A stretch of DNA of 35,006 bases, from positions 1 through 35,006 of IMG/VR virus record IMGVR_UViG_2778261448_000009. One strand, given 5' to 3'. The translations under genes and the position numbers were made by a program. The DNA comes from a virus (lineage: Duplodnaviria; Heunggongvirae; Uroviricota; Caudoviricetes). Of the stretch, positions 1,759 to 18,170 are shown in pieces (the first letter of the stretch is position 1; each line of letters opens with the position of its first letter). The notes below the pieces were generated by a model, which was not told the DNA's origin, did no database searches, and saw only the letters and a list, made by a program, of their open reading frames with translations.

Positions 1759-1933
1759 TTGCCCCTGAATTTTGCCCCTGAACCAAAATCCCCTAGATTT
1801 CACTATCCCATTTTTGCCCCTGAAACCTACTATTTTTGCCCCTGAAAATCTAATTTTTGCCCCTGAAATTTGCCCCCGAAAAGGATTGGTGAGAAAAACT
1901 CTTTATAAAACATTAACTTAGTGAGGGGCAAAA
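1759..1933. repeat. iteron array: six direct copies of TTGCCCC(T/C)GAA plus one inverted near-copy
   Basis: Copies start at 1759, 1772, 1814, 1836, 1857 and 1870 (spacings 13, 42, 22, 21, 13 bp); a degenerate copy TCCCCTAGA at about 1790; inverted copy GAGGGGCAAAA at 1923-1933. No ORF overlaps. Confidence 0.8.
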
Positions 1934-2064
1934 CGGGGAATCGGGCGTGCATAGATATTATATAACACATTCGCTACGCTCATGTGTAAAACCAAAAACA
2001 ACAAATAACCAAAAAGATATTAGGAGGGCTTTGCCCGACTGCGCGAAGCGCCAACCAATTGCTT

Positions 2065-2304
2065 CTAGTAACAACTAATTTAAACTAGATGATACTAGAT
2101 GGTCTTAGAAGGAATTAACTAGTTTGCTCGCTCGCTTCGCTCACTCTCAAACGTCTGCGACGCCACTGCGTGGCATCGAGAATCACTTCTGAAAGGATTT
2201 TCTTGAAAGGGATTTTAAACTAGTTACTAACTGATTCTAGAAAGATAGTAATAATCACTTTGAAGATAATAGTAGTTAACTGGTTACTAGATGATTCTAG
2301 ATCA
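2065..2304. repeat. CTAG-rich repeat cluster (8 CTAG in about 240 bp) with direct repeats ACTAGATGAT and TGATTCTAGA, interleaved with GC-rich dyads
   Basis: CTAG at 2065, 2085, 2095, 2119, 2220, 2237, 2287 and 2297; ACTAGATGAT at 2084 and 2286; TGATTCTAGA at 2232 and 2292; GCGAAGCG (2045) inverted as CGCTTCGC (2133); GCCACtgcGTGGC at about 2162-2174. Confidence 0.75.
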
Positions 2305-2330
2305 CTTTAATGATCATGAAAGGTATTGGT

Positions 2331-2359
2331 ATCCCTTCGGGATTGCAACCTTCGGTTGC
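2331..2359 (+). other. two adjacent stem-loops with UUCG tetraloops (candidate RNA structural element in the leader of the 2562 gene)
   Basis: ATCCC-TTCG-GGGAT at 2331-2343 and GCAACC-TTCG-GGTTGC at 2345-2359; no U-run follows, so it is not a classical terminator. Confidence 0.45.
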
Positions 2360-2561
2360 TAAATTGCTTCCGGATTATTATTTCTCCAAAAGAAAGATTC
2401 TTATATTCTAAAGATACTTCTTCGTTTTGATGATGATTTAATCAAAATCTATGAAGGAGGCGAAGCCGACTGAATACCAATTCCTTTCAAATTAGACAAA
2501 AATTTCTCGTTATAAATAATAGTGAACTTACTTTGATTCACTTTTTTAGAGGATTTCCACT

Positions 2562-3011
2562 ATGATCAATACTAAAACTCCTTTCATTCTTCTGGGTCTG
2601 AACCATGATGATAATCTGGCTATGATGCATGTTTTCGCTAATCGTGGTTATAACATCATTCGTCATTCCGAAGACTCCAATTTCTCAACTGCTTTCTATG
2701 CTCTTAAACGTAATGGTCGCCCTACGGTGATCGTAGACTGCTTTACTGATGAAGGTCGTGAACAATACAACAACATTCCGGCAATTATTGTTCGTGATGA
2801 CCTGCCGTTTGATGTTCGTGAATATGACGTTGATTTAGGCTCTTACTATGGGATCGCCGATCTTGACCAGATTATGGCTGATTATGGTAAACAACCCGCT
2901 CAGGAAGCCCCAGAACACGATGAACAAGACGAAGATGACGACTACACACCAATCTGTTTCTCTTCTCACGGTGGCTTCTACGGTTACGATGAAGGCTTAG
3001 ATATGCTGTAA
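2562..3011 (+). CDS. hypothetical strongly acidic protein, 149 aa (candidate early anti-restriction or DNA-mimic protein, speculative)
   Basis: GAGG-type RBS before the ATG; I count about 29 D/E against 10 K/R, with a C-terminal EAPEHDEQDEDDDY cluster; first ORF downstream of the 1.3 kb noncoding region. Confidence 0.6.
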   Translation: MINTKTPFILLGLNHDDNLAMMHVFANRGYNIIRHSEDSNFSTAFYALKRNGRPTVIVDCFTDEGREQYNNIPAIIVRDDLPFDVREYDVDLGSYYGIADLDQIMADYGKQPAQEAPEHDEQDEDDDYTPICFSSHGGFYGYDEGLDML

Positions 3012-3046
3012 TTTAGGTCAACCCTTTGGCGTCTTGTCAAGGGGTA

Positions 3047-3075
3047 TTGACAAAATTTTCTGACTTTTTTATGAT
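3047..3075 (+). promoter_or_regulatory. sigma70-like promoter: TTGACA, 17-bp spacer, TATGAT
   Basis: Exact -35 hexamer at 3047-3052 and near-consensus -10 at 3070-3075; further TTGACA/TTGTCA boxes at 3034 and 3084; lies upstream of the 3132 gene. Confidence 0.5.
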
Positions 3076-3131
3076 TATCGCACTTGACAACTTTGAACCT
3101 ATTTGACCTAGATTTGTAAAGAGGATGTAAC

Positions 3132-3464
3132 ATGAAAGAATTTACCATCACTAAATCCCTGTATGACTGGACTGTTAAAATCTCCGGCAAAACCGTTTCT
3201 GTAAGCCCTAGCCATGTAGAAAATGATTGGGGCGTATCCCGTGAAACTATCTCCCGTAGTATGCATGTTCCGTTTGATCTGATGTCCTTAACTGGTATTC
3301 ATGCAATGCTGGAAGTTCGCGAACAATTCGAAGCTGGTAATCACAATGCGACTCCAGTTAACAATCACCTTCTTACTAATGAAGAACGTGAAATCATCGA
3401 AAACTGGCGTTATGAATATGCGATTCCTTATTATGAAGAAGATCAGGTAGAAATCGATTGGTAA
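3132..3464 (+). CDS. hypothetical acidic protein, 110 aa, with an HTH-like segment (GVSRETISRSM); weak candidate for a small terminase or regulator
   Basis: RBS AGAGGA before the ATG; TAA stop; no recognisable family by eye. Confidence 0.5.
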   Translation: MKEFTITKSLYDWTVKISGKTVSVSPSHVENDWGVSRETISRSMHVPFDLMSLTGIHAMLEVREQFEAGNHNATPVNNHLLTNEEREIIENWRYEYAIPYYEEDQVEIDW

Positions 3465-3565
3465 TAAATTTCTATTATAAATAAAATTGTTCCGCGCGCC
3501 GTTGGCGTGTGGACAGTTAAAAACAGGAGAATCAATCACTAAACCGTTTAAGGGGAATTTTTACT

Positions 3566-4414
3566 ATGAATACTGTTACTACTATGAATACTGCTGTTAA
3601 AACTGCTTCCGTGTCTCTGGTTGTTGATAACACCAAACCGCTGACCATGTCTACTTTGCAGATCGCGGAATTAACCGGAAAGAATCATAAAGATGTTATG
3701 CGTGATTTTCGTAATATGGTTGATTCGCTTGAAAAGGGTAGCAAACTGGTCGGAGGAGATGAGCGCAATTTTGCGCCCATCGGTTTTTATAAAGAAACGA
3801 CTTATAAAGATTCTCTGAATCGTAATAAACCGATGTATGAACTGGATGAAGATCTCTGTAATACTCTGGTTATGGGATACGATGCACCGCTTCGCTTCAA
3901 AATTGCTAAAGAATGGCGTTTGATGAAAGAAGGTAAAGCTAATGTTCCGGTTAATCCATATGAACACTTTGAAGAAACAGACTGGATCGAACTGGCGTTA
4001 AAGAAAACTCGCGAAAACAAACAACTGATTGAACTTCATGTTCGCAAATCCGTAGATAGCCATTCTATGACACGTCTGTTAGGCGCTAAAAAGGGCGCTA
4101 CGAAGGTTAAAGAAGCACTGACGGCCTTGCGTACTGCTGGCTACATTGAGCGCGTCTATGATGAAAATAACAAGCCGTGTGGGTATGTTGCTAATGACTC
4201 TTCTCTGTCTTTCTGCCGCATGAATGCTCACTACCAACTTGAGTTTACTGTTGATGTTCTTCCTGTGTTGGTTGAATTGGGCATTTTGGAAGAAGAACAG
4301 AAAGCAACTCTTAAACTACCGCAGCCAAATAACACTATTCTGATTCAAAACAAAGCTGCTAAACAGATTCGTGAATCAGGTAACGTAATTTCCCTTGTTG
4401 ATTTTGGGATCTGA
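3566..4414 (+). CDS. Rha-family phage regulatory protein, 282 aa
   Basis: N-terminal segment LTMSTLQIAELTGKNHKDVMRDFRNM matches the signature I recall for the Rha (Phage_pRha) family; RBS AAGGGG before the ATG; TGA stop. Confidence 0.65.
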   Translation: MNTVTTMNTAVKTASVSLVVDNTKPLTMSTLQIAELTGKNHKDVMRDFRNMVDSLEKGSKLVGGDERNFAPIGFYKETTYKDSLNRNKPMYELDEDLCNTLVMGYDAPLRFKIAKEWRLMKEGKANVPVNPYEHFEETDWIELALKKTRENKQLIELHVRKSVDSHSMTRLLGAKKGATKVKEALTALRTAGYIERVYDENNKPCGYVANDSSLSFCRMNAHYQLEFTVDVLPVLVELGILEEEQKATLKLPQPNNTILIQNKAAKQIRESGNVISLVDFGI

Positions 4415-4420
4415 TTAATC

Positions 4421-4451
4421 GCCCGGCGCATAATTGCGCTGGGCTTTTTTG
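4421..4451 (+). terminator. rho-independent terminator after the Rha gene
   Basis: Stem GCCCGGCGC/GCGCTGGGC with one mismatch, loop ATAATT, then TTTTTT. Confidence 0.6.
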
Positions 4452-4462
4452 TATCTGATGCA

Positions 4463-4568
4463 TCCAGATTTGGATTTCTAGAAAGAATCAACCACTTAGA
4501 TAGATACGCTGAACTTTAAGCACATCCCCTCAGTTTTGAGGGCATCTATAGATCAGTCCAAATCTGGA
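4463..4568. repeat. perfect 12-bp inverted repeats TCCAGATTTGGA / TCCAAATCTGGA enclosing an 82-bp segment with an internal hairpin
   Basis: Arms at 4463-4474 and 4557-4568; internal hairpin CCCTCA-GTTT-TGAGGG at about 4528-4543; the element lies between two convergent terminators. Confidence 0.7.
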
Positions 4569-4610
4569 CTCAACTTAGAAATGAGCGCAGTTTTGCGCCG
4601 ATTGTTTTAC

Positions 4611-4638
4611 ATACAAAAAAGCCACTCCGAAGAGTGGC
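4611..4638 (-). terminator. rho-independent terminator for the minus-strand genes, UUCG loop
   Basis: Minus strand reads GCCACTC-TTCG-GAGTGGC followed by TTTTTT. Confidence 0.65.
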
Positions 4639-4653
4639 AAAGAGAATCAAAAC

Positions 4654-4887
4654 TCAAAAACCTGTTGCTTCTACGATCTGACCATCACCGATCTGAACAT
4701 AGAATTTAATGTCTAACTTCTTCATATTCTTATAGAATTGGGCGATTGAGATCCCATGTTCACTAAGAATCTGTTCTTTCGCTTCCTTACCACGATCCGC
4801 TGTATAGTAAGCGTAGGCAATATCAGCCATCTGTTCAGCGTTAAAACGGCAAGGACGACCGCGAGTAGCTTTAGTAGTCATAGTCAT
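4654..4887 (-). CDS. small putative DNA-binding protein, 77 aa
   Basis: Complete ORF ending in TGA; N-terminal TRGRPCRF and an HTH-like ISIAQFYKNMKKLDI segment. Confidence 0.5.
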   Translation of the reverse strand: MTMTTKATRGRPCRFNAEQMADIAYAYYTADRGKEAKEQILSEHGISIAQFYKNMKKLDIKFYVQIGDGQIVEATGF

Positions 4888-4915
4888 TTCTCCAAATTAA
4901 AGTGAATGTTCACCT

Positions 4916-5521
4916 TTATTTAGAGGACTTACATTTTATCGGAAAAAGTTCTCCATCGTCAATACTCATAAAGAACTCTACCTTAATCCCGTACTTCCTC
5001 AGCCGTGAATAATATGTACCCCGACTAATATCAACCTTGCGAAGCACTTCGAAGAACCCTGTAGGATCGTTGTAATAGTGGCTATATTTCACGTTAGCGA
5101 GTTCAACGAATAGTTCCCTTGTATCACCATAGCCTTTCTTGAAAGCCTCGTTACGATAGCGTGTAATTGCGTGATTCAATCTCTTCTGTTTCAACACTTC
5201 TCGGATCGGTGTCCACTGCAAACGATAGATAGGACCGTCATCCACTCGATAATAACGCTTGATATCAAAATCAAACCAATCTCGGACTCTCCGAAACTCT
5301 GTATGTGATGTTCTATGCTTCTTAAAGAAGTTGTGAACGTCTGTATAACCATTATCGCGGTAAAACTCTATTAAAATCTCTTTCGCTTCCTCACGACTAA
5401 AGCCAGATGTTGTGTAGTCGGTTTTTAAATGCTTATGCTTAACTGGCAAACGATATTCATGATCGGTACAACAAGACAAGGCTAATTCTACTTCATCTCT
5501 TTGTTGCTGATTAATTAGCAT
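4916..5521 (-). CDS. hypothetical basic protein, 201 aa, with HTH-like segments
   Basis: Complete ORF with TAA stop; segments such as [14 protein letters not shown] resemble the HTH of the 60-aa protein at 1057-1239; function unknown. Confidence 0.5.
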
Positions 5522-5606
5522 ACAACCCCCTTTAATTAATACCCGTATTTATCAAAATATCAACAATTTAATAAATACCTTCATATTTCGTAATGAGGGT
5601 AATTAC

Positions 5607-7511
5607 ATGAAACTGATTTCAAATAAGGCAAAATTAAAAAAGATTCTCAAAAATGCAGCCAAATATATTACGCCACCGCCTAAGCTCCTTCCTTCTGAAT
5701 GGTGCGAAGCGAATCTAACGCTAGTCGATGGTCCTCGTGCTGGGGATAAAGTTAAATTACTGTCATTTCAGAAAGGCATGATTGATGCTCCTTTCCTTGA
5801 GAAGAAAAAGAAGTACGTTTTTTGTACGAGTGCACAGATCGGAAAGACGACCATCATGTCAGGGATTATGTTTAACCAGATGGCAAACGATCCGTGTAAT
5901 ATCATTATCGGGCAAAGTACCGCTAAAGAAGTGGCTATGTACTTGAATACTAAGATCCGTCCTTCTATTGAAGCATGTCCGGCATTACAGGAAGTGGTAA
6001 CAGATAAGAATGATCGTAATGCGGTAAACAACAATAACCAGATTCAGCTAAAAACAAACCATTTCCTTTACATGGTTTCTTTGACCAGTCCTTCAAGTTT
6101 GCGCGGGCGTACTGCCAAGTTAGGGATTGTAGACGAATGCGACGCAGCAACAATCACCGAAGAAGGTTGCCCGGTGGCACTAACTGCAAACCGTTTAACT
6201 ACCTTTGGTGATGAAGCTCGATTGATTGTTTCTAGTACCCCGACCAATAAGCTGGGAATTATTAACCAGCAATGGTTATCAAGCGATATGCGTATGTTTT
6301 TTGTTCCGTGTCCTCATTGCGGGGAACACCAGGTGATCGAGTGGGAAAACGTACAGTTTGAATGGCGTAACATTGATGGTAAGAACTTACCCGATCCTGA
6401 TACCGCTCGTTATATTTGCCCCCACTGTAAGAACGCATGGACAGAAGGAGAGCGGATCAGGGCGGTGGCACAAGGAGAGTGGAGAGCAACCCGTGAAAGT
6501 GAAGTAGCAGGATTCTGGATCAGCCGTCTGTATTCACCTTTCAGCACGATCCGCGCTTGTGTGGTTGATTTTAGTCATGCGTGGCAATCCTTTGATTTAC
6601 AATCATTTTATAACACCGTGTTAGGCAAGGTATACGACGATCAGGACACGGCAGTAGAAGCAAATGAACTGGAACAACTCAAAACAGATGTTTCTATCGA
6701 GAATATCCCTGATGACGTGATTTTCTTGTGTGCGGGTACTGACCAGCAATTAGATCGCGCAGAAACTACAATCATGGGCGTGGCAAAGGATAAGATTTAT
6801 ATTCTGGATCATCGCAGCTTTTACGATCATAACTGTGAACGATATGAATCCCCTGTATGGGATAGATTAATCAACTTCCATAAAACCAAATTTACTACTG
6901 TATCGGGTGATCGTGTTCCTATGCTCGCCAGCTTCCTTGATACATCGAACGGTCGATTCACTCAAGCCGGATACCGTATTTGCGGCAAGTGGAAGAACTT
7001 ACACGCTATCAAAGGTAGTTCTGCTGGTAACGCTCCGATCATTCCGGTTAAACCTACCCGCACAGGTGGTCATGAATTGCTTATGTTGGGTGTTAACGTG
7101 GGTAAAACTGCATTTCGTGAAATGTTGGCTAGGAACCTGAAAGATAATCCTCATATTAGCTTAGAAATATCAGACACCGTTCCTGATGATTATTTCGATC
7201 AGCTTTTAAGTGAATCTGTTAAGCGTACTACTACTGGCGTGAGATGGGTAAAGAACCCAGGCGTTAGGAACGAGGCGCTCGACTGCGCCGTGTATGCTAC
7301 AGCGGCTTCTCGCTACGTTCTTTCAAAAATGTCATGGGATAAACTCATTGCAATGAAAGACAGCTTAAACCGTGTTGTCGAAGAACCCGTAAAAGCTCCT
7401 AAATCGCAATCTAACGAGCAAATCGAAGAAACTAAGCCAATCACACGACCACAACGTCAAAACATCGCCAGACGTCCAAATAGAGGACGTAGCTGGATAA
7501 CATCGTTCTAA
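5607..7511 (+). CDS. terminase large subunit, lambda GpA family, 634 aa
   Basis: Motifs shared with my recollection of lambda gpA: CPHCGEHQV (lambda ACPHCGEEQ), [14 protein letters not shown] (lambda YSPFTT), [10 protein letters not shown] (lambda GIDSQLDRYE), [15 protein letters not shown] (lambda RRNEALDCFVYALAA). RBS GAGGG before the ATG. Confidence 0.85.
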
Positions 7512-7517
7512 TCATTC

Positions 7518-7535
7518 GCCGTCCTTCGGGGCGGC
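7518..7535 (+). other. intercistronic stem-loop with UUCG tetraloop
   Basis: GCCGTCC-TTCG-GGGCGGC directly after the terminase stop; no U-run follows. Confidence 0.45.
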
Positions 7536-7583
7536 TTACTCCTAAATATTGTTAATCCAATAACAATTAAATAAGGGGTAATT

Positions 7584-8078
7584 ATGAGTTTAGAACTAAT
7601 TCCCTTAGTAATTCGTAAAGGCGAAAAAATCACGCTGGCGAATGAAGAGGGTGTAACAATTCAGGTAGGAAATAGTAAAGGTATCATTTATCAGGTTGAT
7701 GATTCTCCGGCTAATCACGAGATTAAAACCTTAGATTTTGCCGAGGGTAAATATACCATCGTAACCACGTTGGAAGATGAACTGGTATCAATGCAGGAAT
7801 TAACTGTTTTGCCAGTATTCGCCAAACAATCCAAAAAAGAATATCTGCGGGAAACTATCGCCTTAATCGAGCAAGTTATTTTCGCCCGTTTATCTGGGGA
7901 CGAAGCCGCATTATCTCAAATGACCGTGAAAGGGAATACTTTCGCTTATGAATCATTAGGTGTTCTCCAGCAATTGAAGACTGATTATGAACGTCAGTTA
8001 TCTAAATTAATTCAAGCCGAACGACGTAAACAGGGAATTAGCCCGATTAAAAATATCAAATTACGTCTTACGCGATAA
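7584..8078 (+). CDS. hypothetical protein, 164 aa, at the position lambda gpW occupies between terminase and portal
   Basis: RBS AAGGGGTAATT before the ATG; assignment by position only. Confidence 0.45.
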   Translation: MSLELIPLVIRKGEKITLANEEGVTIQVGNSKGIIYQVDDSPANHEIKTLDFAEGKYTIVTTLEDELVSMQELTVLPVFAKQSKKEYLRETIALIEQVIFARLSGDEAALSQMTVKGNTFAYESLGVLQQLKTDYERQLSKLIQAERRKQGISPIKNIKLRLTR

Positions 8079-8088
8079 GGGGTAAATC

Positions 8089-9600
8089 ATGTTTAATCTT
8101 TTTCGACGCAAAAAGGCGGTAGAAACTCCAGTTAAAACTAATCACCGCCAGCAACAACAAAAAATCTTTATCGACAAACAAGTAGAAAAATTCCAGAAAG
8201 ATTTGTCTAAGCGTTCTTTGGGCTTAGTCGGTGATCGTATTGATGGATCACTTCAACAAGACACCATTACAGGAACCTTCAATAAGGCTCTCAAATCAAA
8301 CGGTAAGCGCCTTTATGATCAGGGTCGTACTCTGGCCTTAAACACTTCCGTAGGCAGTCGCTACACGCAATACATCACCGATATGGTGGTAGGTACTGGC
8401 CTAGATCCGAAGCCATCAATCGTTAAATCAAATGGCAAACTTGATAGCGCACTGAATAAGCAGATCGAGAATGCTTTCTGGAAGTGGGCGCAGAACGCTA
8501 AACGCTTCTCTCGCAATGGTCGCTTTAACTTCCGTGAACTGCTGGTAATGGCTGAACGTGAGCGCGTTATGGGTGGTGAGTGCTTCATCGTTTTAACCAA
8601 AGAAAACAATGAGTTAAATGTTTCCATCCTGTCTGCTGATAAGTGCGACTGGTCGCTAAACCGTGAAGTAAGCAAAGAACGTGCTATCTATCAGGGGATC
8701 GAGTATGACGTAGAAACAATGAAGCCAGTAGCATACTGGTTTCGTAAAATCAACCTACTGACTCAGACTTACACAGGTGATAACTATCGCGTAGATGCAT
8801 CGCAAGTATGCCATTATTATCAACCACTTACAGCCGAATCCCTGCGTGGTGTGACTGACTTCCTGCCAGTGATCAAGGATATCGCACATCAAGACGCATT
8901 CCGCGAAACTGCAATTATCCAGAAACGTATTGCGGCTAGTTCTATGGGCTTTATCGAACGTCCGAAAGATTCTGGTGACGATTTTGATACTGGTGAAGAG
9001 GATGAACAATATCAAGCGCCGGAAGTAGTACAGGATTTTGCACCTGGTACTATTCAGGAATTACCGGAAGGGGCAACGATCAAGAGCATCCAGGCGACGC
9101 AAAGCGGTGATGACTTCAATTCCTTTAACGATGCGATGTTTACTAGCGTATCAATGGGCTTAGGCGTGTTTAAACAGGGCTTAACTGGCGATACTAGCCA
9201 AATAAATTACAGCGCTGCACGCTACGGCGAATTACTTCAAAGAACGCGCGTTAAAGCACTGCAAAACAAATTGATTGAAACAGTGGTGTCGCCCATTTTC
9301 GAAGCATATCTACGCCATTATTCCGCGCGTGGTATTGTTCCGATTCGTATTACTGCAATTCCACATATTATCGATAATACAACTATTATTCGTCCGCGTT
9401 TTGAATCCGTCGATCCATTTAAAGACGTAAGCGCCGAGATTGCTTTAATTGATAAAGGACTTAAATCACGTACTGCCGTTATTCTTGAACGTGGTGATGA
9501 TCCTGAAAAAGTATTCTCAGAGATTCAAGCCGAAAAGAGCGCACTAAATATTATCGTTAATGGCGAGGGTGAAGAAAAAAATTCCCCAGCCGATCCCTAA
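8089..9600 (+). CDS. portal protein, 503 aa
   Basis: Position immediately after terminase and before the protease-capsid gene; size typical of lambda-family portals; acidic C-terminal tail. Confidence 0.7.
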   Translation: MFNLFRRKKAVETPVKTNHRQQQQKIFIDKQVEKFQKDLSKRSLGLVGDRIDGSLQQDTITGTFNKALKSNGKRLYDQGRTLALNTSVGSRYTQYITDMVVGTGLDPKPSIVKSNGKLDSALNKQIENAFWKWAQNAKRFSRNGRFNFRELLVMAERERVMGGECFIVLTKENNELNVSILSADKCDWSLNREVSKERAIYQGIEYDVETMKPVAYWFRKINLLTQTYTGDNYRVDASQVCHYYQPLTAESLRGVTDFLPVIKDIAHQDAFRETAIIQKRIAASSMGFIERPKDSGDDFDTGEEDEQYQAPEVVQDFAPGTIQELPEGATIKSIQATQSGDDFNSFNDAMFTSVSMGLGVFKQGLTGDTSQINYSAARYGELLQRTRVKALQNKLIETVVSPIFEAYLRHYSARGIVPIRITAIPHIIDNTTIIRPRFESVDPFKDVSAEIALIDKGLKSRTAVILERGDDPEKVFSEIQAEKSALNIIVNGEGEEKNSPADP

Positions 9601-9608
9601 TAACCAAC

Positions 9609-9625
9609 GGGGGCGCAATGCCCCC
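9609..9625 (+). other. intercistronic stem-loop between portal and capsid genes
   Basis: GGGGGC-GCAAT-GCCCCC; no U-run follows. Confidence 0.4.
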
Positions 9626-9645
9626 AATTAATTAAAGGTGATTAA

Positions 9646-11658
9646 ATGCTTAAATTTCGCCGCGATCTTAACGGTTACGGTGGAGTTATTAACGAAGGGC
9701 ATAACGATCAATACGAGTTTGAAATTGCTTTCTCAAGTACACAGCCTTATCAGCGCCAATTTTGGGATGAGCAAAATCAAGAAATGGTGGTATTAGATGA
9801 AATTCTGGTACATACACCGGAAGCGGTTGATCTGTCTCGTCTGAATAATAACGCTCCGTTGCTGTTCAATCATAATTTCGATAATCATATTGGTGTCGTT
9901 TGTAACGCTCGAATCGATGCGGATAACGTAGGTCGTGCTCTGGTTAGATTCTCTAAGCATGGCACTTTGGCTAATGATATTCGCAATAAAGTCATTGAAG
10001 GTACGATGGAAAAAATTTCTGTCGGTTATGACATTAAAGAATATCACATCGACTACACCAAAGGACAACTGATTGTTACTAAGTGGGCACCCTATGAACT
10101 CTCATTTGTCACCGTTCCCGCAGACGATACGGTCGGTTTAAATCGCTCTCTAAATACTATCACAGTTAATTTGGAGGCTAAACGCGATATGACTAAAGAA
10201 CAAATTGAAGAAATCAAAGAAGAACAAGAATCCGCTCAGGTTGAAGAAACTCCGGTAGAAGAAAATAAAGAACCGGAAGTTGAAGAAACTCAAGAGCGCC
10301 AAGTTGAAGAGAATAAAGAAGATGAAAATCTCGAAGACGGAAAAGACGCTAAACATCCTGAAAGTGTTGATGATGATAGTTCAACTGTTCGGGAAACAGA
10401 AGAAGTAAAAGAAGAACGTGAAGCTGCTCCGGTTGAAGAAGAAAAAATCGAGGAAGTGGCTGAACGTTCCGAAGAAGACGAATTAGAAATTCGCGAAATT
10501 GCACGCGAGTTAAATATTAACGAAGACGATGAAGAATTTAAACGCGCATTGGCAAATAAAGAAATTACGCCGGAAGCATTCCGCACTAAGGCACTAAATA
10601 AAATCGCTACTGCTCAACGTAACAACGAACAACAAATTAAGGACTCTAAAATGGAAAAAACTTTTGACCTGAACAACGTAATTCGCTCTCTGGTAGATGG
10701 TGCTGCTCTGGGCGCTCATGAAGCTGAATATTCCGCTATGGCTGCTGGTGCTGCAATGCAGCGTGGTCGTGCTGCTCGCGGTGGCTCTGTATTCGTTCCG
10801 GCTGCTGCTATGCGTGCTGCTTCTGCTGGTAACACCAAAGCCGACCTGACCGCTATCACTGACGAAAAACTGATGACTGAATCCTACATCGAAATGCTGA
10901 TGCCGGAATCTGTTCTGGGTCGTCTGGGTGTGACTGTTTACAGTGGCTTGAACTCCCCGACCGCTATTCCAAAAATGACTAAATCCAGCGTTGACGCTTT
11001 CGGCTTCGTTGATGAAAACGGTGCTGCACCGGAAAGCAAAGCTGAATTTGCGAACGTGAAACTGTCTCCGAAAACTTTTGCTGGTGGCAACCCGATCAGC
11101 CGTCAGTCGCTGAAAACCGTTCCGGGCATCGCTACCCTGATCACTGATCACATTAACAAAGCTGTTCGCATCAAACTGGAACAACTGATTCTGTCTGATA
11201 AAGCTAACGACCGTGGTCCGGCTGGTCTGGTTAAGCAACTGGTAGACGCTAGCCGCGTTACCAAGAAAGCTGCTTTCTCTTACAAAGACTTCCTGAAAGA
11301 AATTGCAGCACTGACCGACGCTGGCGTTCCTGCTCAGGCGATCAAGTTTGCGATGAGCGGTGCAACTGCTTCTGAACTGGAATCTACCCTGAAAGATAAC
11401 GGCGTTTCCGGTTATATCATCGAAAACGGCAAACTGGCTGGTTACGAAGTAGTTACTTCTGGCGTTATCCCGGCAGACCACATCGTTCTGGGTGACTTCT
11501 CCGGTATTACTATCGGTGAGTGGGGAGGTCTGGAACTCGACATGGATCTAACTACATATAGGGATCGTGGTGCGGTAGTGCCTCGTATCTTTGTAGATTT
11601 GGACTACGTTGTAGCACAGCCGGAAGCTCTGAAAGTTCTTCACATCTCCGCTGAATGA
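9646..11658 (+). CDS. prohead protease (HK97 gp4-like) - acidic scaffold - major capsid protein, single 670-aa ORF
   Basis: N-terminal LLFNHNFDNHIG, ISVGY and YELSFVTVPA resemble HK97 protease motifs ALFNHD, SFAF and FDVSPVTYPA as I recall them. Residues about 185-300 are E-rich and repetitive. The C-terminal 330 aa have capsid-like composition. TGA stop. Confidence 0.7.
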   Translation: MLKFRRDLNGYGGVINEGHNDQYEFEIAFSSTQPYQRQFWDEQNQEMVVLDEILVHTPEAVDLSRLNNNAPLLFNHNFDNHIGVVCNARIDADNVGRALVRFSKHGTLANDIRNKVIEGTMEKISVGYDIKEYHIDYTKGQLIVTKWAPYELSFVTVPADDTVGLNRSLNTITVNLEAKRDMTKEQIEEIKEEQESAQVEETPVEENKEPEVEETQERQVEENKEDENLEDGKDAKHPESVDDDSSTVRETEEVKEEREAAPVEEEKIEEVAERSEEDELEIREIARELNINEDDEEFKRALANKEITPEAFRTKALNKIATAQRNNEQQIKDSKMEKTFDLNNVIRSLVDGAALGAHEAEYSAMAAGAAMQRGRAARGGSVFVPAAAMRAASAGNTKADLTAITDEKLMTESYIEMLMPESVLGRLGVTVYSGLNSPTAIPKMTKSSVDAFGFVDENGAAPESKAEFANVKLSPKTFAGGNPISRQSLKTVPGIATLITDHINKAVRIKLEQLILSDKANDRGPAGLVKQLVDASRVTKKAAFSYKDFLKEIAALTDAGVPAQAIKFAMSGATASELESTLKDNGVSGYIIENGKLAGYEVVTSGVIPADHIVLGDFSGITIGEWGGLELDMDLTTYRDRGAVVPRIFVDLDYVVAQPEALKVLHISAE

Positions 11659-11745
11659 AATAACGAAGAATTGCCGGAAGAAATTCCGGTAGTTACGGCG
11701 AAAGCCACAGCTAAAAAGGTGGGACGTCCACCGAAAGCAAAATAA
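11659..11745 (+). other. in-frame 28-codon extension after the capsid TGA stop (candidate readthrough product NNEELPEEIPVVTAKATAKKVGRPPKAK)
   Basis: No in-frame stop until TAA at 11743-11745; conserved with the extension after the tail-tube gene, including synonymous codon differences. Confidence 0.5.
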
Positions 11746-11750
11746 TAATT

Positions 11751-11777
11751 AGCCCTGCCTAACGGTGGGGCTTTTTT
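11751..11777 (+). terminator. rho-independent terminator
   Basis: AGCCCTGCC-TAAC-GGTGGGGCT then TTTTTT; near-identical to the terminator at 17621. Confidence 0.75.
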
Positions 11778-11807
11778 GTATGTAAATACTCCATAAAGGG
11801 GGTAACT

Positions 11808-12098
11808 ATGTTCAAATTATCAGAATCACAATTATCAAGAATGTTTAAGAGTGCTCCTGTATTTGTGGTGGAAGGTGGTAAATCAATTCGTGCTTATCAT
11901 GAAATTACTACTACCGACGAATCAGGTGTAATGACAGAAACCGAATTTCTATTCTGTCGTGAGGGAGACTTAAAGCAAGGTGATATTGTCACAGTAGAAA
12001 ACCAGCGTTTCAAAGTTCAATACGTTAAGCGCAATGGTGACAATACTTGTGATTGCTTTATCACTTTAGCAGGGGGTACACATGCTCGCTACCGTTAA
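11808..12098 (+). CDS. hypothetical head-tail joining protein, 96 aa (lambda FII position)
   Basis: RBS AAGGGGGTAACT before the ATG; assignment by synteny only. Confidence 0.4.
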   Translation: MFKLSESQLSRMFKSAPVFVVEGGKSIRAYHEITTTDESGVMTETEFLFCREGDLKQGDIVTVENQRFKVQYVKRNGDNTCDCFITLAGGTHARYR

Positions 12099-12504
12099 TA
12101 ATATGCCGAGACTGAAAATCAAACGCGCCTTGCAAGATATTATCGAACAAGATTTAGGTCTGGCTTTAAACGTAGAACAAACTCAGCAAGGCTTTAGTGA
12201 TGACGTGGTTTGTTGGATTACTGGCATGAATGAAACTTATACGCGTGTTCGTGGTGGTAATGCAATGCAAGCTGAATGCGTTATCGAAATGCAATTATAT
12301 TCTCAGATTCATGAAACCAAAATTCATGAGGGTATTTGCCAGATAATCCAGATTCAGCCGGATAACCCACGTTTTAAAGATTTGGGCTTCTCAATTTCAG
12401 ATATCACTCCAGTAGCTTCTAATACCGATTATGACGATGATTCTAGTGATGGGGGTATCGTTGGGACACTTAGCCTTAAATTTTCTTATCTAGCGCGTTT
12501 TTAA
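12082..12504 (+). CDS. hypothetical head-tail or tail-completion protein, 140 aa (lambda Z/U position)
   Basis: Overlaps the upstream gene by 17 nt; AGGGGG before the ATG; assignment by synteny only. Confidence 0.4.
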   Translation: MLATVNNMPRLKIKRALQDIIEQDLGLALNVEQTQQGFSDDVVCWITGMNETYTRVRGGNAMQAECVIEMQLYSQIHETKIHEGICQIIQIQPDNPRFKDLGFSISDITPVASNTDYDDDSSDGGIVGTLSLKFSYLARF

Positions 12505-12513
12505 GGGGTAATA

Positions 12514-13347
12514 ATGAATATTACACAAGATAACTTAGACATTTTCACGGGGTCACATGTTGTCGTTTCCGTGTCTGATATGGTTGATAACCAGCCGGAC
12601 TTCTTCGATCCCAGCTTTAGCCCGATTGATAACGTGGCATCATTCCCGACGATCACCGAATCCACCGAGATAGAAACTCTTGAGGAATATGATCATGATG
12701 CTACTGGTAAACTTGCCGGATACCGCAAATTAGAACCGACTACGCTTGTTTTAAACCGTGTTCTTGACGATGAACATCAAGCAATGTTGATGAAAGCGGT
12801 AGAGGATAAAACACCTTTACGCTTCCGTATGTTCTATGTTGTGAACTCTGGCTATAGTGCTGCTAACACTGGTTACTATGTCATCTATGACGCTTATGTC
12901 ACATCACACAAAACCCGTGGTAGTGATAACAAAGCTGTAACACTGGAATTTAAACTTGAACCAGATGGCGGGATTTTGGATCGCGGTATTGCAACCGAGG
13001 GTCGTCTGCTCCGTCAGGGCGATATGGGCGTTGGTGCAGGAATTAGCCCGTTCACTGGTCCTACCGATAGCGAAGTATTAGCGGGTAACAGATTTGTAAC
13101 TTACAAGGGAACTGCTAGCGGTAATCCATACTCAGCTGACACATCATTAATTCACCTTCAAGCTAATGAGCATGGCGCATGGCAATTAACCTGTAATACT
13201 TCTGGCGCACCGCGTTTACGTGTCCGAAATATTCAGGAAAACGGTCGTTCTGAATGGATCAAGGTATATTCCACCAATGAGAAACCGACACCTAGCGAAA
13301 TTGGCGCAGTGGCTAAGACTGACCGGATCGATTTCGGCGAATACTAA
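12514..13347 (+). CDS. major-tail-protein (gpV-like) paralog with an extra C-terminal domain, 277 aa
   Basis: N-terminal DIFTG motif shared with the 157-aa gene at 17022; DDEHQAMLMKAVEDKTPLRFRMF resembles lambda gpV [23 protein letters not shown] as I recall it; C-terminal EKPTPSEIGAVAK recurs in the fibre. Confidence 0.5.
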   Translation: MNITQDNLDIFTGSHVVVSVSDMVDNQPDFFDPSFSPIDNVASFPTITESTEIETLEEYDHDATGKLAGYRKLEPTTLVLNRVLDDEHQAMLMKAVEDKTPLRFRMFYVVNSGYSAANTGYYVIYDAYVTSHKTRGSDNKAVTLEFKLEPDGGILDRGIATEGRLLRQGDMGVGAGISPFTGPTDSEVLAGNRFVTYKGTASGNPYSADTSLIHLQANEHGAWQLTCNTSGAPRLRVRNIQENGRSEWIKVYSTNEKPTPSEIGAVAKTDRIDFGEY

Positions 13348-13428: not shown

Positions 13429-16400
13429 ATGCAATCAATCCAATTTAAACGCACACAGACGGCTGGTAAAAAGCCGACGCCGGAACAATTATCACAGGGT
13501 GAAATCGCCTTACAGTTGGCGGATCATGTGATTTACACCAAAGACAAAAATAATAACGTAGTCCAAATTAGTGTTTCTCCAGAAAAACACGCTGAACTGA
13601 ATACGAAAGTAGACACCAACAAGGTCAATACAGATAAAGTCATTTCAGCAAATAAAACCGAAGCCGCTAATAATCTGGCTAGTGCTAAAGCTGAACTGAA
13701 TCAGACTATCACTTCTACCCGTGATACTCTCAATGCTTCAATCACTGCTGGCGATACCGCAGCCAACAAACGAATTGATGCTTTGACTACCACAGTAGGT
13801 AACAATAAAACCGAAGCGGCTAACGCTCTGGCGGCTGCTAAGACTGAACTGAATCAGACTATTACTTCAACCCGCGATACTATCAACGCGACAATTAACA
13901 AGAACAAGACAGATATTAATGCGCGAGTTGATCAGACGAATACCAACGTTACCAACTTAACGAATACTGTCGCAGCAAATAAATCAGCAATAGAAAAGAC
14001 GGTAGCGGATAATAAGAAAGATGCGGACACGAAGATCACCAATCTTACTAGTACGGTCTCTGCGAATAAGACGGCCATTGAAAGAACTGTTGCAAATAAC
14101 AAGGCCAGTGCCGATGCCGCAATTGCCGCAGCTAATCAGCGAATTGATTCGATTGAAGGTAGTGCCGATGCTGCTTACATCAAGAAGAATACCAACACTT
14201 ACCATCACGGCTATCTGTTAACCAAAACAGCTAACTATTTGGAAGACCAGACAGCGAGAGATCTTAACTACTTTGGTGCTTTCCGTACCAATGGTCAAGA
14301 TGGACTCATGGATCTAACTCTTAACGTTCCTCACTCTGCCGGCAAAGCGCACGGTCGCGGATTTACTTTCCGTTATGCGTCTGGTGGATCTCGTGTTGAA
14401 ACCTATGGTTTTGATAGAGAAGGACAGAAGAACTTTAGCTATAAGATGTATCACGAAGGTGATAAGCCGACTCCTGGCGAGATTGGTGCATACACCAAAG
14501 CCGAAGTTGATAAGATGTTTGTTAAAAACGTCGTTATGTCTGTTCCCAATTCTAGCGAAAACGTATCTGCATATTTCAAATTGGCAACCGCAACAATTCC
14601 ACAAAACGGGCGTAGTGTGTTTTTCCGTATTCATGGTGGTAATGGTTACAACGTTACGGCATATGACCAAGTTGATGTAGTAGAAATTCTTCTCCGTAGT
14701 GGTAACGATAGACCTAAAGGTCTTAACGTAATTGCATACCGTAGAAATACAAACAAAGATTTTGAGGTATTTGCTGTCAATACTTCCGGTGATAACTATG
14801 ATATCTACGTGAAATATCAGCGTTATACCGATAACGTTATTGTCGAATATGGGAAATCTGTTTATGTAAGTTTGACGGTTTATGATACGCCGGAAGCCAC
14901 GTTAATTAAACCTTCCGTTGGTGTTATCGGTGGTCGCAACGTAACTCTTTTTAACACAGAAAATAAACGTGGTGTGTTGAGTTTTGACGATAACACACAA
15001 AATAGTTATGATATTGTTCACTTGAGTAATGATAGGGGTACTGGTCGGAAATATATTCGTAAATTCCGTAGCAACTATAACGAAATGATCTGGCATGAGA
15101 CGGTTCAAGGTTCTACTTATCGACTCGCCACGGGTAGTACAGATTCTCAGGAGATTCTATCCGTTGAATCTAGTAGCTCTATTGCTGGGACTCATAAAGG
15201 TAATATTCTTTCTGGTCGAATGATGTTGGGTGGCGGTAGTAATGTTATTACCTTGCGGCGTCCTGCTGGTCAATCCAACCATATTGCGTTTCAAGATAAT
15301 CGGACTGGAGATATTACCCGTCAAGGGTGGATCGGTTATGGTAATGCTGATACTAACGTTTTTGAATGGTATAGTGATGTAGGTGGTACTTCTATTCGTC
15401 ACCACATAGACGGACAGATCGAATTTCAGACAGGTAACACAAAACGAGTTTATACTAACGCTCAATTCATCTCAATGAATAGCGACGCCTACCGCATGAT
15501 CTACGGTAATTATGGTGCATTCTGGCGTAATGACGGCAATAAAGTTTATCTTCTTTCTACTGCCGAAAATGATAAATTGGGCGGATGGAATGGAAACAGA
15601 CCGTTCATTTACGATTTGACTAACGGTAAAGTTACTTTAGGCGGTGATGGTAACGAAGGTGCATTAGTTCTTGAAAGAGATAGCCGTGCTGCCCGTTTTA
15701 GCAACAATGTATTCTTAGAAAAAGGACTGCTTACTTTCTCTGCTGGTGGAAATCAGTCGATGGATTCTTTTACGATTAACCATTGGGGGAATAGTAATGC
15801 CAATCGATATAACGTTTTGCAATTCCAGGACACTAGCGGAACTCACTTTACTACAGAACGTAACGGTACTGGTGGCTTACTTGCTCATTTCCGAGGGGAT
15901 TTAACTACCGAAGGAAAATTAACGTGGGGCAAAAATACAGCTACTTCTAGCTTTAATATCCGTGCGTGGGGTGCTGATGCTCGTAAACAAGTATTCGAAT
16001 GTGCGGACGAAAGCGGTTGGCACTGGTACACACAACGACCGGGCGGTCCGGGTACTGAATTAATCGAGTTTGCCATCAACGGTACTGTTAAACCTAAAGC
16101 AATTCACACTGGCGGTAATATCACGCTTAACGGTGCTGATATTGAGTTTCGTCGCAGTGGCAATAAGCATTTGTGGTTTAGAGATCCAAATGGCTTAGAA
16201 TTGGGTCTGTTGTACTGCGATGATGCTGGCGTTATGCGTATGCGCGGTGAGAAACAAACCGAAGTCTGGAAATTCGGCGGTAAGATGATTCACCTTGAAA
16301 CGGGCACTGTATCCGGTGGCGGTAATGGTCTTATTCGTGGTAGCGTTGCTGGTGGTAGTTGGGCTAGCTGGCGTGATCGTGCTTCTGGTATTCAGGTCGA

Positions 16401-16965
16401 TTGTCAACAATCAACCGATTCCGCTCATAACGTATGGAAAGCAACCCATCAAGGTAAATATCATATCGCAGCAATGGGTGTACATGTTCCTAGCGGTACT
16501 ATCGGTAACGCTACAGTTAAACTTCATGTTCATGACGCTGGTTTTGACTTTAACGCTGCTGGTGACTTTACCGCAGGTCGTAACGGTTCGTTTAACGATG
16601 TTTACATTCGCTCTGACTCCCGTTTGAAGATTAACAAGGAAGAATTACAGGACGGTGCATTAGAGAAAGTAAACTCCCTGAAAGTATACTCTTACGATAA
16701 AGTTAAATCTCTTTCCGATGACACAGTGATTAAACGCGAAGTAGGTATTATTGCTCAGGATCTGGAAAAAGTATTACCGGAAGCAGTAGGTATTCAATCC
16801 ACCGAAGATCCAGAACATCCAGAAGCAATCAAGACTATTTCTAACTCTGCTGTCAATGCTTTAATCATCAAAGCAATGCAGGAAATGACCGCTAAGTTTG
16901 ATGCTATGGCTAAAGAACTTGCCGAAACTAAAGCTGAATTAGCCGAACTGAAAGCAACTAAATAA
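13429..16965 (+). CDS. side tail fibre, 1178 aa, with C-terminal intramolecular chaperone (peptidase S74-like) domain
   Basis: N-terminus MQSIQFKRTQTAGKKPTPEQLSQGEIALQLADHVIY; tandem about 50-aa repeats (NKTEAAN-LA-AK-ELNQTITSTRDT) at nt about 13650-13900; C-terminal SDSRLKINKEELQDG...VGIIAQDLEKVLPEAV followed by a coiled coil, as in self-cleaving fibre chaperone domains. Confidence 0.75.
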   Translation: MQSIQFKRTQTAGKKPTPEQLSQGEIALQLADHVIYTKDKNNNVVQISVSPEKHAELNTKVDTNKVNTDKVISANKTEAANNLASAKAELNQTITSTRDTLNASITAGDTAANKRIDALTTTVGNNKTEAANALAAAKTELNQTITSTRDTINATINKNKTDINARVDQTNTNVTNLTNTVAANKSAIEKTVADNKKDADTKITNLTSTVSANKTAIERTVANNKASADAAIAAANQRIDSIEGSADAAYIKKNTNTYHHGYLLTKTANYLEDQTARDLNYFGAFRTNGQDGLMDLTLNVPHSAGKAHGRGFTFRYASGGSRVETYGFDREGQKNFSYKMYHEGDKPTPGEIGAYTKAEVDKMFVKNVVMSVPNSSENVSAYFKLATATIPQNGRSVFFRIHGGNGYNVTAYDQVDVVEILLRSGNDRPKGLNVIAYRRNTNKDFEVFAVNTSGDNYDIYVKYQRYTDNVIVEYGKSVYVSLTVYDTPEATLIKPSVGVIGGRNVTLFNTENKRGVLSFDDNTQNSYDIVHLSNDRGTGRKYIRKFRSNYNEMIWHETVQGSTYRLATGSTDSQEILSVESSSSIAGTHKGNILSGRMMLGGGSNVITLRRPAGQSNHIAFQDNRTGDITRQGWIGYGNADTNVFEWYSDVGGTSIRHHIDGQIEFQTGNTKRVYTNAQFISMNSDAYRMIYGNYGAFWRNDGNKVYLLSTAENDKLGGWNGNRPFIYDLTNGKVTLGGDGNEGALVLERDSRAARFSNNVFLEKGLLTFSAGGNQSMDSFTINHWGNSNANRYNVLQFQDTSGTHFTTERNGTGGLLAHFRGDLTTEGKLTWGKNTATSSFNIRAWGADARKQVFECADESGWHWYTQRPGGPGTELIEFAINGTVKPKAIHTGGNITLNGADIEFRRSGNKHLWFRDPNGLELGLLYCDDAGVMRMRGEKQTEVWKFGGKMIHLETGTVSGGGNGLIRGSVAGGSWASWRDRASGIQVDCQQSTDSAHNVWKATHQGKYHIAAMGVHVPSGTIGNATVKLHVHDAGFDFNAAGDFTAGRNGSFNDVYIRSDSRLKINKEELQDGALEKVNSLKVYSYDKVKSLSDDTVIKREVGIIAQDLEKVLPEAVGIQSTEDPEHPEAIKTISNSAVNALIIKAMQEMTAKFDAMAKELAETKAELAELKATK

Positions 16966-17021: not shown

Positions 17022-17495
17022 ATGTCTCAACAATTCAAAGATATTTTTACTGGTGGTTTGGTAAGTCTGTTCTATCACGCTGATACCACTAACACCGATC
17101 TTGCTGATGAAGCATACGAAGAAATTAAAGAGTGTGCTGGTTTTCCTGAAACTGGTATCGAGCGCGGTACTGTAGAAGTTAAATCCTTCTCTTCTCAGTA
17201 TAACCGTAAACTGGTAGGGAAGCTGAACGTTCCTGATCTGACTCTGACCGTTAACTACATCCCAGGCGATGCGGTACATGAAAAACTGATCAAAGCTGCC
17301 GAAGACGGTACTCGTATTCAGATTAAAGTAGAATATTACGTTGACGCAGCAAAACAGACTGGTATTCGCACCGCTTTCAACGGCTTCATTTCTAAAGTTG
17401 CTATGAACGGTGGCGATGAAGAAGTTGTAACCAAAGAGTTTACCTTTGCTGTTGATGGTGCTCCGCTGAAACAGCAAATCTTCACTGCCGGATGA
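17022..17495 (+). CDS. major tail tube protein, gpV N-domain-like, 157 aa
   Basis: DLTLTVNYIPGD, EDGTRIQIKVEY, FNGFISKVA and TKEFTFAV parallel lambda gpV [32 protein letters not shown] and TRTVKVTNV as I recall them; RBS AAGGGGTAATT; strong terminator downstream; TGA stop. Confidence 0.65.
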   Translation: MSQQFKDIFTGGLVSLFYHADTTNTDLADEAYEEIKECAGFPETGIERGTVEVKSFSSQYNRKLVGKLNVPDLTLTVNYIPGDAVHEKLIKAAEDGTRIQIKVEYYVDAAKQTGIRTAFNGFISKVAMNGGDEEVVTKEFTFAVDGAPLKQQIFTAG

Positions 17496-17663: not shown

Positions 17664-18170
17664 ATGGCGAATGTCGTTAATAAGCCTGGCTGGGTCGGGT
17701 CATCTGCTGTTTCTGTAACTGGTCAACGATGGATGAGCGCAGCAATGAACGCATTAAAGGTTAGTCGCCCAGCTAACATGAGTGCGATGTGTGGTCGTGG
17801 TATGGATACGGTTGTAGCTACTGCTGCGTGGACTACTTCATTGGGTAATAACTGGGGTGTAACTGCTTCAAACTATCCAGTAACTGACATGCGCGGTAAA
17901 GGATCTATGGAGAACCCCGAAAACGTGGGCGTAGGGCGTCTGATTGGCGTTATCGTTGGTCAATTCAATGGTGGTACTCCTACTATGGCTGTATATCTCC
18001 AGAACGGTAGAGCGGGGAATATAACCGTTAATTTGGGTGGTGCTGCTGTCACTGTTCCTTATAACAGTATGCAAAGTGGTTTTCATTACTATTGGTTAAG
18101 CAATCCTCCGGCTGCTTTCCTAACAAATATTAAGAAGGCTGGCACTAAGCAGACTTTGAAAATCTCTTAA
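17664..18170 (+). CDS. hypothetical structural protein, 168 aa
   Basis: RBS GGAG before the ATG; sits between the tube and chaperone genes; Gly/Thr/Val-rich, beta-rich composition; no family recognised. Confidence 0.4.
   Translation: MANVVNKPGWVGSSAVSVTGQRWMSAAMNALKVSRPANMSAMCGRGMDTVVATAAWTTSLGNNWGVTASNYPVTDMRGKGSMENPENVGVGRLIGVIVGQFNGGTPTMAVYLQNGRAGNITVNLGGAAVTVPYNSMQSGFHYYWLSNPPAAFLTNIKKAGTKQTLKIS

Follow-up and report, generated by a model that had tools for sequence, protein, structure and literature searches.

A protease-capsid fusion gene of a lambda-like Escherichia coli prophage as a probable self-processing head precursor with candidate internal translation starts

The viral DNA analysed here, 35,006 nucleotides long (IMG/VR record IMGVR_UViG_2778261448_000009, positions 1 to 35,006; hereafter the window), carries one open reading frame (ORF) in which a prohead protease, an acidic tether, a helical delta- or scaffold-like domain and an HK97-fold major capsid protein are joined (Table 1). 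This fusion gene supplies the core of head assembly in a lambda-like siphovirus prophage of Escherichia coli. The best explanation of the whole, which we consider fairly probable, is that the gene is a fused equivalent of HK97 gp4 and gp5, that its product is self-processing and that its mRNA has probable internal starts. Furthermore, the comparison of related sequences makes it somewhat better than an even chance that the whole class of protease-capsid fusion genes is nested: a conserved internal ribosome-binding site (RBS) and ATG after the protease domain would yield capsid precursors without the protease, which would assemble together with a minority of full-length protein.

The product of the gene is a protein of 670 amino acids and 73.9 kDa with a net charge of about -45, which starts at ATG and has no internal stop in its frame. 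An earlier reading of the window from its letters alone (the sequence-only reading) had described exactly this single ORF, with a protease, a scaffold- or delta-like segment and a capsid part in that order; the ORF was confirmed, and the three-part assignment was borne out by Pfam, PHROGs and a structure model. The same reading had concluded that a single polyprotein implies a fixed stoichiometry of protease to capsid. This found no support and is probably wrong, as suggested by a conserved internal Shine-Dalgarno (SD) motif with ATG after the protease and a second one before the pre-capsid helix.

These sites were discovered by scanning the in-frame ATGs for upstream SD motifs. The sequence-only reading had proposed to check for an internal start giving a separate capsid protein, and at the level of sequence the outcome was positive, with GGAGG upstream of the ATG of Met182 and AAGGA upstream of that of Met336. 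Met182 occupies the family-wide position, exactly at the boundary between protease and linker. Among 148 close variants of the E. coli lineage, M1, H76, S125, E151, M182 and M336 were invariant, and the only common polymorphism beside Met182 was Glu177/Gly177 (codon 177, 10174-10176). In the copies whose DNA was read, this codon was GAG or GGG, giving GGAGG or GGGGG, and the G-rich match to the anti-SD sequence was kept in both.

The position after the protease was then followed across the family. In a first alignment of 14 diverged homologues, a methionine was found shortly after the protease domain in 14/14, in surroundings that could not be aligned, and most had an SD-like motif. The post-protease ATG was anchored on the motif P[YF]E[ILV]S..V.PA and tested on loci fetched after the discovery. 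In the set enlarged with 80 genome loci, 83 fused loci were tested; the first post-motif ATG lay 5-60 amino acids downstream in 81 of them, and in 36 loci versus 5.9 expected no other in-frame ATG had a better SD. As a local control, the site was compared with every other codon position of its own purine-rich linker, and it was in the best 10% in 49% of the loci (p = 3e-19); linkers free of methionine numbered 3 where about 22 were expected. The pattern held in a separate set made up of IMG/VR viral contigs alone. For the pooled 163 non-redundant fused loci, the best SD belonged to this site in 66 versus 12 expected (Mann-Whitney p = 3e-25), the local control ranked it within the top 10% in 74/156 loci (p = 1e-32), and only 7 loci versus 41.8 expected had no methionine in the 60 amino acids after the motif (p = 4e-13). 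With a 13-nt anti-SD probe the effect was smaller yet strong (p = 1e-14; local control p = 7e-19).

In several groups the conserved protein sequence begins exactly at the post-protease methionine, for example M-x-E-K-I-L-R-D-A-x-G-N-L-V-R-A, and in two loci (L033 and L070) the first methionine has no SD and a second one a few residues on has it. The cases without SD were mostly from Verrucomicrobiota, where the methionine and the conserved peptide after it were kept. Two metagenome-assembled genomes of this phylum (L029 and L046) have the boundary methionine and the peptide MN[KR]EQ[IM][IL]A.L.A.GI with no SD. Verrucomicrobiota make little use of SD motifs, and the pattern in these two fits SD-independent initiation there. 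Another candidate, the M/L position in 'G-[ML]-[ST]-[DE]-K' before a helix in the ECO1230-like group, was rejected as a start; it alternates with leucine and has no SD.

In the closest relatives outside E. coli, which are from Leclercia, Phytobacter and several viral contigs and are 30-36% identical, the boundary methionine is missing, and a methionine corresponding to Met336 stands directly before the conserved helix [FY][DS]L..[IV]R[SA]. AAGGA followed after 6-12 nt by ATG was present in 16/18 loci of this sub-lineage, and in them the lysine of the conserved K-[DE] was always AAG. In the other two, DCP80 and L097, the codons were AAA-GAT and the methionine was replaced by leucine (CTC/CTG), so that AAGGA and ATG are gone together, and the boundary start with its SD was kept. 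All the 18 sub-lineage loci with both sites examined have at least one internal SD and ATG each, and the E. coli prophage has both. The AAG-GAx codon choice and the joint loss of SD and ATG argue for selection on the nucleotide motif. Because of these conserved sites, protease-less capsid precursors are probably made from the same gene.

The rival explanation that survives best is a strict polyprotein, in which only the 670-residue protein is made, protease and capsid stand at 1:1 and the conserved methionines are relics of an ancestral capsid start or structural; we consider this unlikely, though deserving of serious weight. It agrees with the strong RBS of the annotated start, with the annotation of the gene everywhere as one coding sequence, with the paper on Lactococcus phage Nocturne116, which treats the fused ORF18 as one precursor (PMC13595954), and with the 7/163 family members that have no methionine in the first 60 linker residues. 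A relic, however, would not keep both ATG and SD across lineages of about 25% identity with unalignable linkers, and the AAG-GAx choice in 16/16 sub-lineage loci, together with the joint SD/ATG loss in two others, also speaks against it. In addition, 415 full-length subunits would place 18.4 MDa and about -16,000 net charges inside the T=7 shell, roughly four times the delta-domain load of HK97 (4.8 MDa) and 50-77% of the procapsid volume, on a rough and merely suggestive estimate that assumes T=7 and inner radii of 190-220 Å and leaves 1:1 possible.

The softness of that estimate is one of several points that weigh against the best explanation given above. The putative starts come from sequence statistics; the loci share ancestry, so that the p-values make them look more independent than they are, and Glu, Lys and Gly codons readily produce SD-like strings, an effect that the local control addresses but cannot remove. 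The 11-nt spacer of Met182 is longer than optimal. With the 13-nt anti-SD probe the annotated start (-10.1 kcal/mol) is as strong as Met182 (-9.3), which gives no ground for deducing that the short form is in large excess; Met182 as the clearly stronger start was rejected, since the -4.3 obtained for the annotated start with a 9-nt probe becomes -10.1 with the 13-nt one. The SD of Met336 is weak (-5.8 kcal/mol versus -6.1 to -14.5 for real starts in the window), and this residue is at the end of a long helix predicted for 309-339; a product begun there would be missing half of the helical domain. Conservation of the two candidates falls in different subsets of loci, no report of internal initiation in a protease-capsid fusion was found in the literature searched, and the Nocturne116 authors make no mention of an internal start (PMC13595954). 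Lastly, the maturation site proposed below is a homology-based guess.

The N-terminal domain matched Pfam Peptidase_S78 (PF04586) over residues 40-162 (E = 3e-10, 40.9 bits versus a cut-off of 21). An alignment of 95 diverse sequences, whose columns averaged 27% identity, left just four columns invariant: His76, Ser125, Glu151 and Gly616. His76 and Ser125 align with His65 and Ser114 of HK97 gp4, which we take to be its catalytic residues. The protease domain was modelled on its own, as a Foldseek search with the whole model gave capsid matches only, and its fold then matched T4 gp21 and herpesvirus assemblins. These results together point to a catalytically intact serine protease of S78/assemblin fold. 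The competing proposal, that the domain is a degenerate, inactive protease serving only as extra scaffold, with maturation non-proteolytic or by a host protease, could draw on the stricter equivalog TIGR01543 (HK97 proheadase), which scored below its cut-off (36.5 vs 59 bits), and on the low identity to HK97 gp4 (32% over 60 amino acids). It is nevertheless very improbable: His76, Ser125 and Glu151 are invariant in the 95 diverse sequences, where almost nothing else is, as well as in the 148 close variants, the Pfam match is above cut-off and the fold is like that of active prohead proteases. The invariance of the catalytic residues among diverged homologues indicates that the protease is under selection as an active enzyme. 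Thus, the HK97-type prohead protease named by the sequence-only reading held up in the profile search that it had proposed, where the protease and capsid profiles both scored above their Pfam cut-offs.

A self-processing precursor is the best reading of the gene product. The sequence-only reading had also proposed this, and homology lends it support through the invariant catalytic residues, the assemblin/T4 gp21 fold and the arginine at the corresponding junction of Nocturne116. HK97 gp5 is cut after Lys103 and its mature form begins at Ser104. Position 2 of the Pfam capsid profile corresponds to residue 113 in HK97 gp5, and position 11 to residue 412 in the fusion protein, and this register puts the equivalent mature N-terminus near fusion residue 393. 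At least 90% of the 95 sequences have Arg390. On the strength of the register and of Arg390, cleavage is predicted at or near Arg390/Ala391. The mature capsid protein would then span residues 391-670 (280 amino acids, 29.6 kDa), compared with 282 amino acids in HK97. For ORF18 of Nocturne116, the mature capsid N-terminus in the electron cryomicroscopy (cryo-EM) map is residue 243, taken as cleavage at Arg242/Ser243 (PMC13595954). The paper on roseophage R4C, whose capsid protein is among the matches below, makes no mention of processing.

The middle and C-terminal parts were delimited on an AlphaFold2 model built on 95 diverse homologues, with a mean predicted local distance difference test score of 82. 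In it, residues 21-165 are beta-rich, 170-181 and 198-270 are disordered, 396-410 are flexible and 411-670 take the capsid fold, with confident helices at 276-288, 296-303, 309-339, 342-351, 357-372 and 386-393. The sequence-only reading had called residues 185-300 highly acidic and repetitive. The segment is indeed acidic (44% Asp+Glu, net charge -36); its repeats are weak, with a degenerate 24-nt unit present 2.6 times at 10258-10320 and three imperfect copies of ~47 nt, and 'low-complexity acidic' describes it better. The helical domain that follows holds the family-conserved motif E-I-x-x-I-A...A-I-x-x-G-x-S-x-x-x-F and the helix FDLNNVIRSL. The capsid domain matched Pfam Phage_capsid (PF05065) over residues 412-666 (E = 5e-26, 92.1 bits versus a cut-off of 24.2), and a sequence search of the PDB gave 8gta_A of roseophage R4C (E = 4e-24). 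The best Foldseek matches, all with probability 1.00, were 8gta, 9lbm, 8vd4, 9ous, 6tb9 and HK97 entries, so that the capsid matches cover R4C, phiXacJX1, SaPI1/80alpha, D3, RcGTA and HK97; identity to the HK97 capsid protein is ~16%. The C-terminal 330 residues had been described as capsid-like, which stands for 411-670, and about 55 residues of that stretch are helical pre-capsid sequence instead.

Hundreds of E. coli, Shigella and Salmonella assemblies have the ORF at a conserved length of 665-670 amino acids. More than 140 proteins of 654-670 amino acids, 93-97% identical and with both Pfam domains, come from separate assemblies of E. coli, Shigella, Salmonella and E. albertii, and a second profile search of a protein database returned the same near-identical E. 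coli set and nothing further. The locus is present in 55/5426 complete E. coli genomes and is chromosomal in every case. Among the 148 variants, indels are confined to the linker (residues 187-331) or the C-terminal residue, apart from two one-residue insertions in the capsid domain, each in one variant. In related loci with the protease motif, the frame is always open into the capsid domain; the 83 kept loci run for more than 380 codons, and in the few cut by a contig end it is open for 314-406 codons. An artefactual origin of the single ORF, be it by sequencing frameshift (which the sequence-only reading had itself raised, along with an unrecognised stop), by loss of a stop codon or by pseudogene fusion of adjacent genes, has next to no chance and is already refuted by the comparative data, namely the equal ORF in the >140 independent assemblies and 55 complete genomes, the fusion being intact in all related loci checked from many phyla, and the sizes in the exhaustive search described next.

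That search, made by HMMER over 1.84 billion cluster representatives, found 518 clusters (50% identity) at E<=1e-30, with lengths of 560-700 amino acids for all but a few of the best 150. The protein matched PHROG 617 (E = 1e-95) from end to end, its residues 23-665 covering positions 26-621 of the 626 in the profile, and a second match (E = 3e-41) was to PHROG 4523, 'major head and protease protein'. Against NCBIfam NF045541 (scaf_prot_MCP2, 'prohead protease/major capsid protein fusion protein') it reached 134 bits versus a cut-off of 525, over residues 22-355 only; the protein is not a member of this narrow 'exception' family, though it has the same architecture. The same fused layout was found by tblastn in phiHAP-1, VP882, RcCronus/RcRhea, RcKemmy, Xanthomonas FoX/Murka, ECO1230-10, Arya, Mano, Persinger, Mica, S-CBS1/3 and roseophages, and many actinophages share the protease-scaffold-capsid layout. 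A one-genome-per-species scan returned 222 relatives, and the 80 of them fetched for analysis cover all proteobacterial classes, Campylobacterota, Verrucomicrobiota, Planctomycetota, Fibrobacter and Spirochaetota. For phage Giantsbane, which has a different host, protease, scaffold and capsid in one ORF are stated explicitly in the literature. A preprint on CBASS (cyclic oligonucleotide-based antiphage signalling) with a 'prohead protease fusion' was discarded as a precedent; it describes a scaffold-protease protein and not a capsid fusion. The layout is thus already well known under a standard annotation term, and the gene is an ordinary member of a large named family. Two members, S-CBS3 (L012) and CRP-811 (L013), have a further ~200-residue N-terminal extension before the protease, with totals of 836 and 816 amino acids. 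The DCP80 record ('Escherichia phage DCP80', PQ671644.1, locus L003) is 141 kb long, is classified in Tevenvirinae and starts with a lambda-like terminase/portal/fusion module (1858-11786); it has the look of a T4-like phage and a prophage-derived contig joined in a chimeric assembly.

The gene order around the fusion is a Rha/Ant-like regulator, large terminase, gpW-like protein, lambda-type portal, the fusion, a gpFII-like protein and then tail genes, tape-measure protein, tail tip, endolysin, helicase and serine integrase. Profile annotation of the window proteins found no further head protease, scaffold or capsid gene. In E. coli 14EC007 (NZ_CP024131.1, locus L001) the prophage is inserted in and interrupts ycdX, with the large serine recombinase at one end; this copy has an IS1A just downstream of the tail-tip gene, and RefSeq labels its fusion gene as 'phage major capsid family protein'. 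Megablast of 8000-13000 against a phage collection gave zero matches, and hence that collection holds no sequenced close phage relative. An origin from an Stx2 phage (Sp5/933W), suggested by the low G+C, was rejected, as there is no similarity and Sp5 is without the protease. A capsid-forming satellite of the phage-inducible chromosomal island type was ruled out because the full tail module is present.

A terminator-like hairpin lies directly 3' of the fusion gene, and terminators are annotated at the equivalent relative place in the HK97, Mano and Mica records; the shared position suggests a common way to boost capsid mRNA over that of the downstream genes. Another, GC-rich hairpin (GGGGGC-GCAAT-GCCCCC, 9609-9625), without a T-run on the + strand, sits in the 45-nt gap that separates the capsid-gene RBS from the stop of the portal gene (9600). 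Further downstream, two paralogous ORFs like major tail proteins (both PHROG 158; 12514-13347 and 17022-17495) flank a T4 gp37-like long-tail-fibre gene (13429-16965, 1178 amino acids), and a gp38-like adhesin is at 17664-18170; a fibre cassette within the tail-tube region is an odd placement. In actinophage cluster AU, a duplicated major tail protein has been reported in combination with a capsid-protease fusion.

Table 1. Positions of the fusion gene, its parts and candidate signals, and neighbouring genes in the window
Feature	Position	Strand	Detail or basis
Large terminase	5607-7511		
gpW-like protein	7584-8078		
Lambda-type portal	8089-9600		
RBS AGGTGAT of annotated start	9636..9642	+	3-nt spacer to ATG 9646; -10.1 kcal/mol, 13-nt anti-SD
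Fusion gene (protease + acidic tether + helical delta/scaffold-like domain + HK97-fold major capsid protein)	9646..11658	+	ORF list, Pfam, PHROGs, NCBIfam
Protease domain, residues 21-165	9706..10140	+	
His76	9871-9873	+	
Ser125	10018-10020	+	
Glu151	10096-10098	+	
GGAGG SD-like motif	10173..10177	+	11 nt upstream of ATG 10189; -9.3 kcal/mol
Candidate internal start 1, Met182	10189..10191	+	Predicted product 489 amino acids, 53.2 kDa, protease-less
Acidic, mostly disordered tether, residues 182-275	10189..10470	+	11 kDa, net charge about -27, degenerate repeats
Helical delta/scaffold-like domain, residues 276-393	10471..10824	+	AlphaFold model, alignments
AAGGA SD-like motif	10639..10643	+	7 nt upstream of ATG 10651; AAGGA-ATG pattern in sub-lineage
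Candidate internal start 2, Met336	10651..10653	+	Predicted product 335 amino acids, 35.3 kDa capsid precursor
Predicted cleavage site Arg390/Ala391	10813..10818	+	Arg390 conservation, HK97 register, Nocturne116 precedent
HK97-fold major capsid protein domain	10816..11655	+	Pfam PF05065, PDB, Foldseek
Terminator-like hairpin (9-bp stem, 6 GC pairs) + T-run	11751..11779	+	Directly 3' of fusion gene, before gpFII-like gene at 11808
gpFII-like protein	11808-12098		
Large serine recombinase, 564 amino acids	32273-33967	-	

On the explanation that we favour, the C-terminal domains would build a procapsid of T=7 size by polymerising on the lambda-type portal, with all the N-terminal parts pointing inward, and the protease would be encapsidated by its covalent tether without a separate targeting tail. 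After assembly, it would cut at or near Arg390/Ala391 and degrade the internal parts, which would free the interior for DNA and leave the mature capsid protein of ~29.6 kDa. The mRNA would probably also be read from Met182 and/or Met336, giving co-terminal protease-less precursors (53 and 35 kDa) that would join the full-length form in assembly, with the ratio of protease to capsid set by relative initiation. If this is true, the capsid protein itself would be the encapsidation signal for the protease, relative initiation would set the dose, and the internal start would explain how a fused gene avoids packing 415 proteases per head; such genes, if the start is real across the family, should be annotated with two or three products, not one. 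The fusion layout by itself matters little, as it is common, has a standard name and has a cryo-EM example with a mapped mature N-terminus. By labelling this widespread gene of E. coli prophages as capsid only, RefSeq conceals that it also has protease and scaffold parts. The predicted cleavage site and the catalytic residues offer direct experimental handles, and the internal starts would be cheap to test with the prophage in ordinary E. coli strains.

Among the phages with the same gene family, phiHAP-1/VP882 (Hapunavirus), ECO1230-10, Arya, FoX/Murka and RcCronus/RcKemmy have the same three parts, order, synteny and catalytic residues as the E. coli fusion at 24-32% identity, and the DCP80 record is 43% identical. 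The sub-lineage of the E. coli fusion differs from them by a longer and far more acidic tether and by the second conserved internal ATG before the pre-capsid helix. In Paracoccus, ClpP-gpT fusions have been described in 34% of siphovirus prophages; these have other hosts and are of other families, with a ClpP/S14 protease and the Mu gpT capsid, and the fusion has therefore arisen more than once. Nocturne116 ORF18 (Lactococcus, c2-like; J Virol 2026, PMC13595954) has an N-terminal prohead protease, a central putative scaffold and a C-terminal HK97-fold capsid, and its Arg242/Ser243 at the scaffold/capsid junction mirrors the predicted Arg390/Ala391. It differs in having a pre-capsid part of 242 vs ~390 residues and a prolate head with a separate vertex protein.

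The sequence-only reading had compared the gene with lambda, where its functions are split across C, Nu3 and E. The apt counterpart is HK97 gp4 and gp5, a protease gene followed by a delta-domain capsid gene; lambda C is a different, ClpP/S49-type protease. HK97 and the fusion share the protease family with aligned His and Ser, the capsid fold and a scaffold function within the capsid precursor, and gp5 is cleaved after a basic residue ~9 residues before the Pfam capsid domain, as predicted for the fusion. HK97 has two genes, and its gp4 reaches the procapsid via its C-terminal tail, whereas in the fusion the stop codon and the gp4 tail are replaced by the covalent tether. The internal starts are, in our estimate, slightly more apt to be real than not and would be a modestly novel lead, judged on sequence. 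In lambda C/Nu3, HSV-1 (herpes simplex virus 1) UL26/UL26.5 and HFTV1 gp17/gp17.5, an in-frame start after the protease gives an abundant, protease-less, co-terminal assembly protein, and for HFTV1 the internal start was shown by start-site ribosome profiling (bioRxiv 10.64898/2026.09.13.751334). The shared C-terminal part of these nested systems is a scaffold and the capsid gene is separate, whereas that of the fusion would include the capsid protein; if true, the principle of lambda C/Nu3 and UL26/UL26.5 would thus extend to the capsid protein as the shared part.

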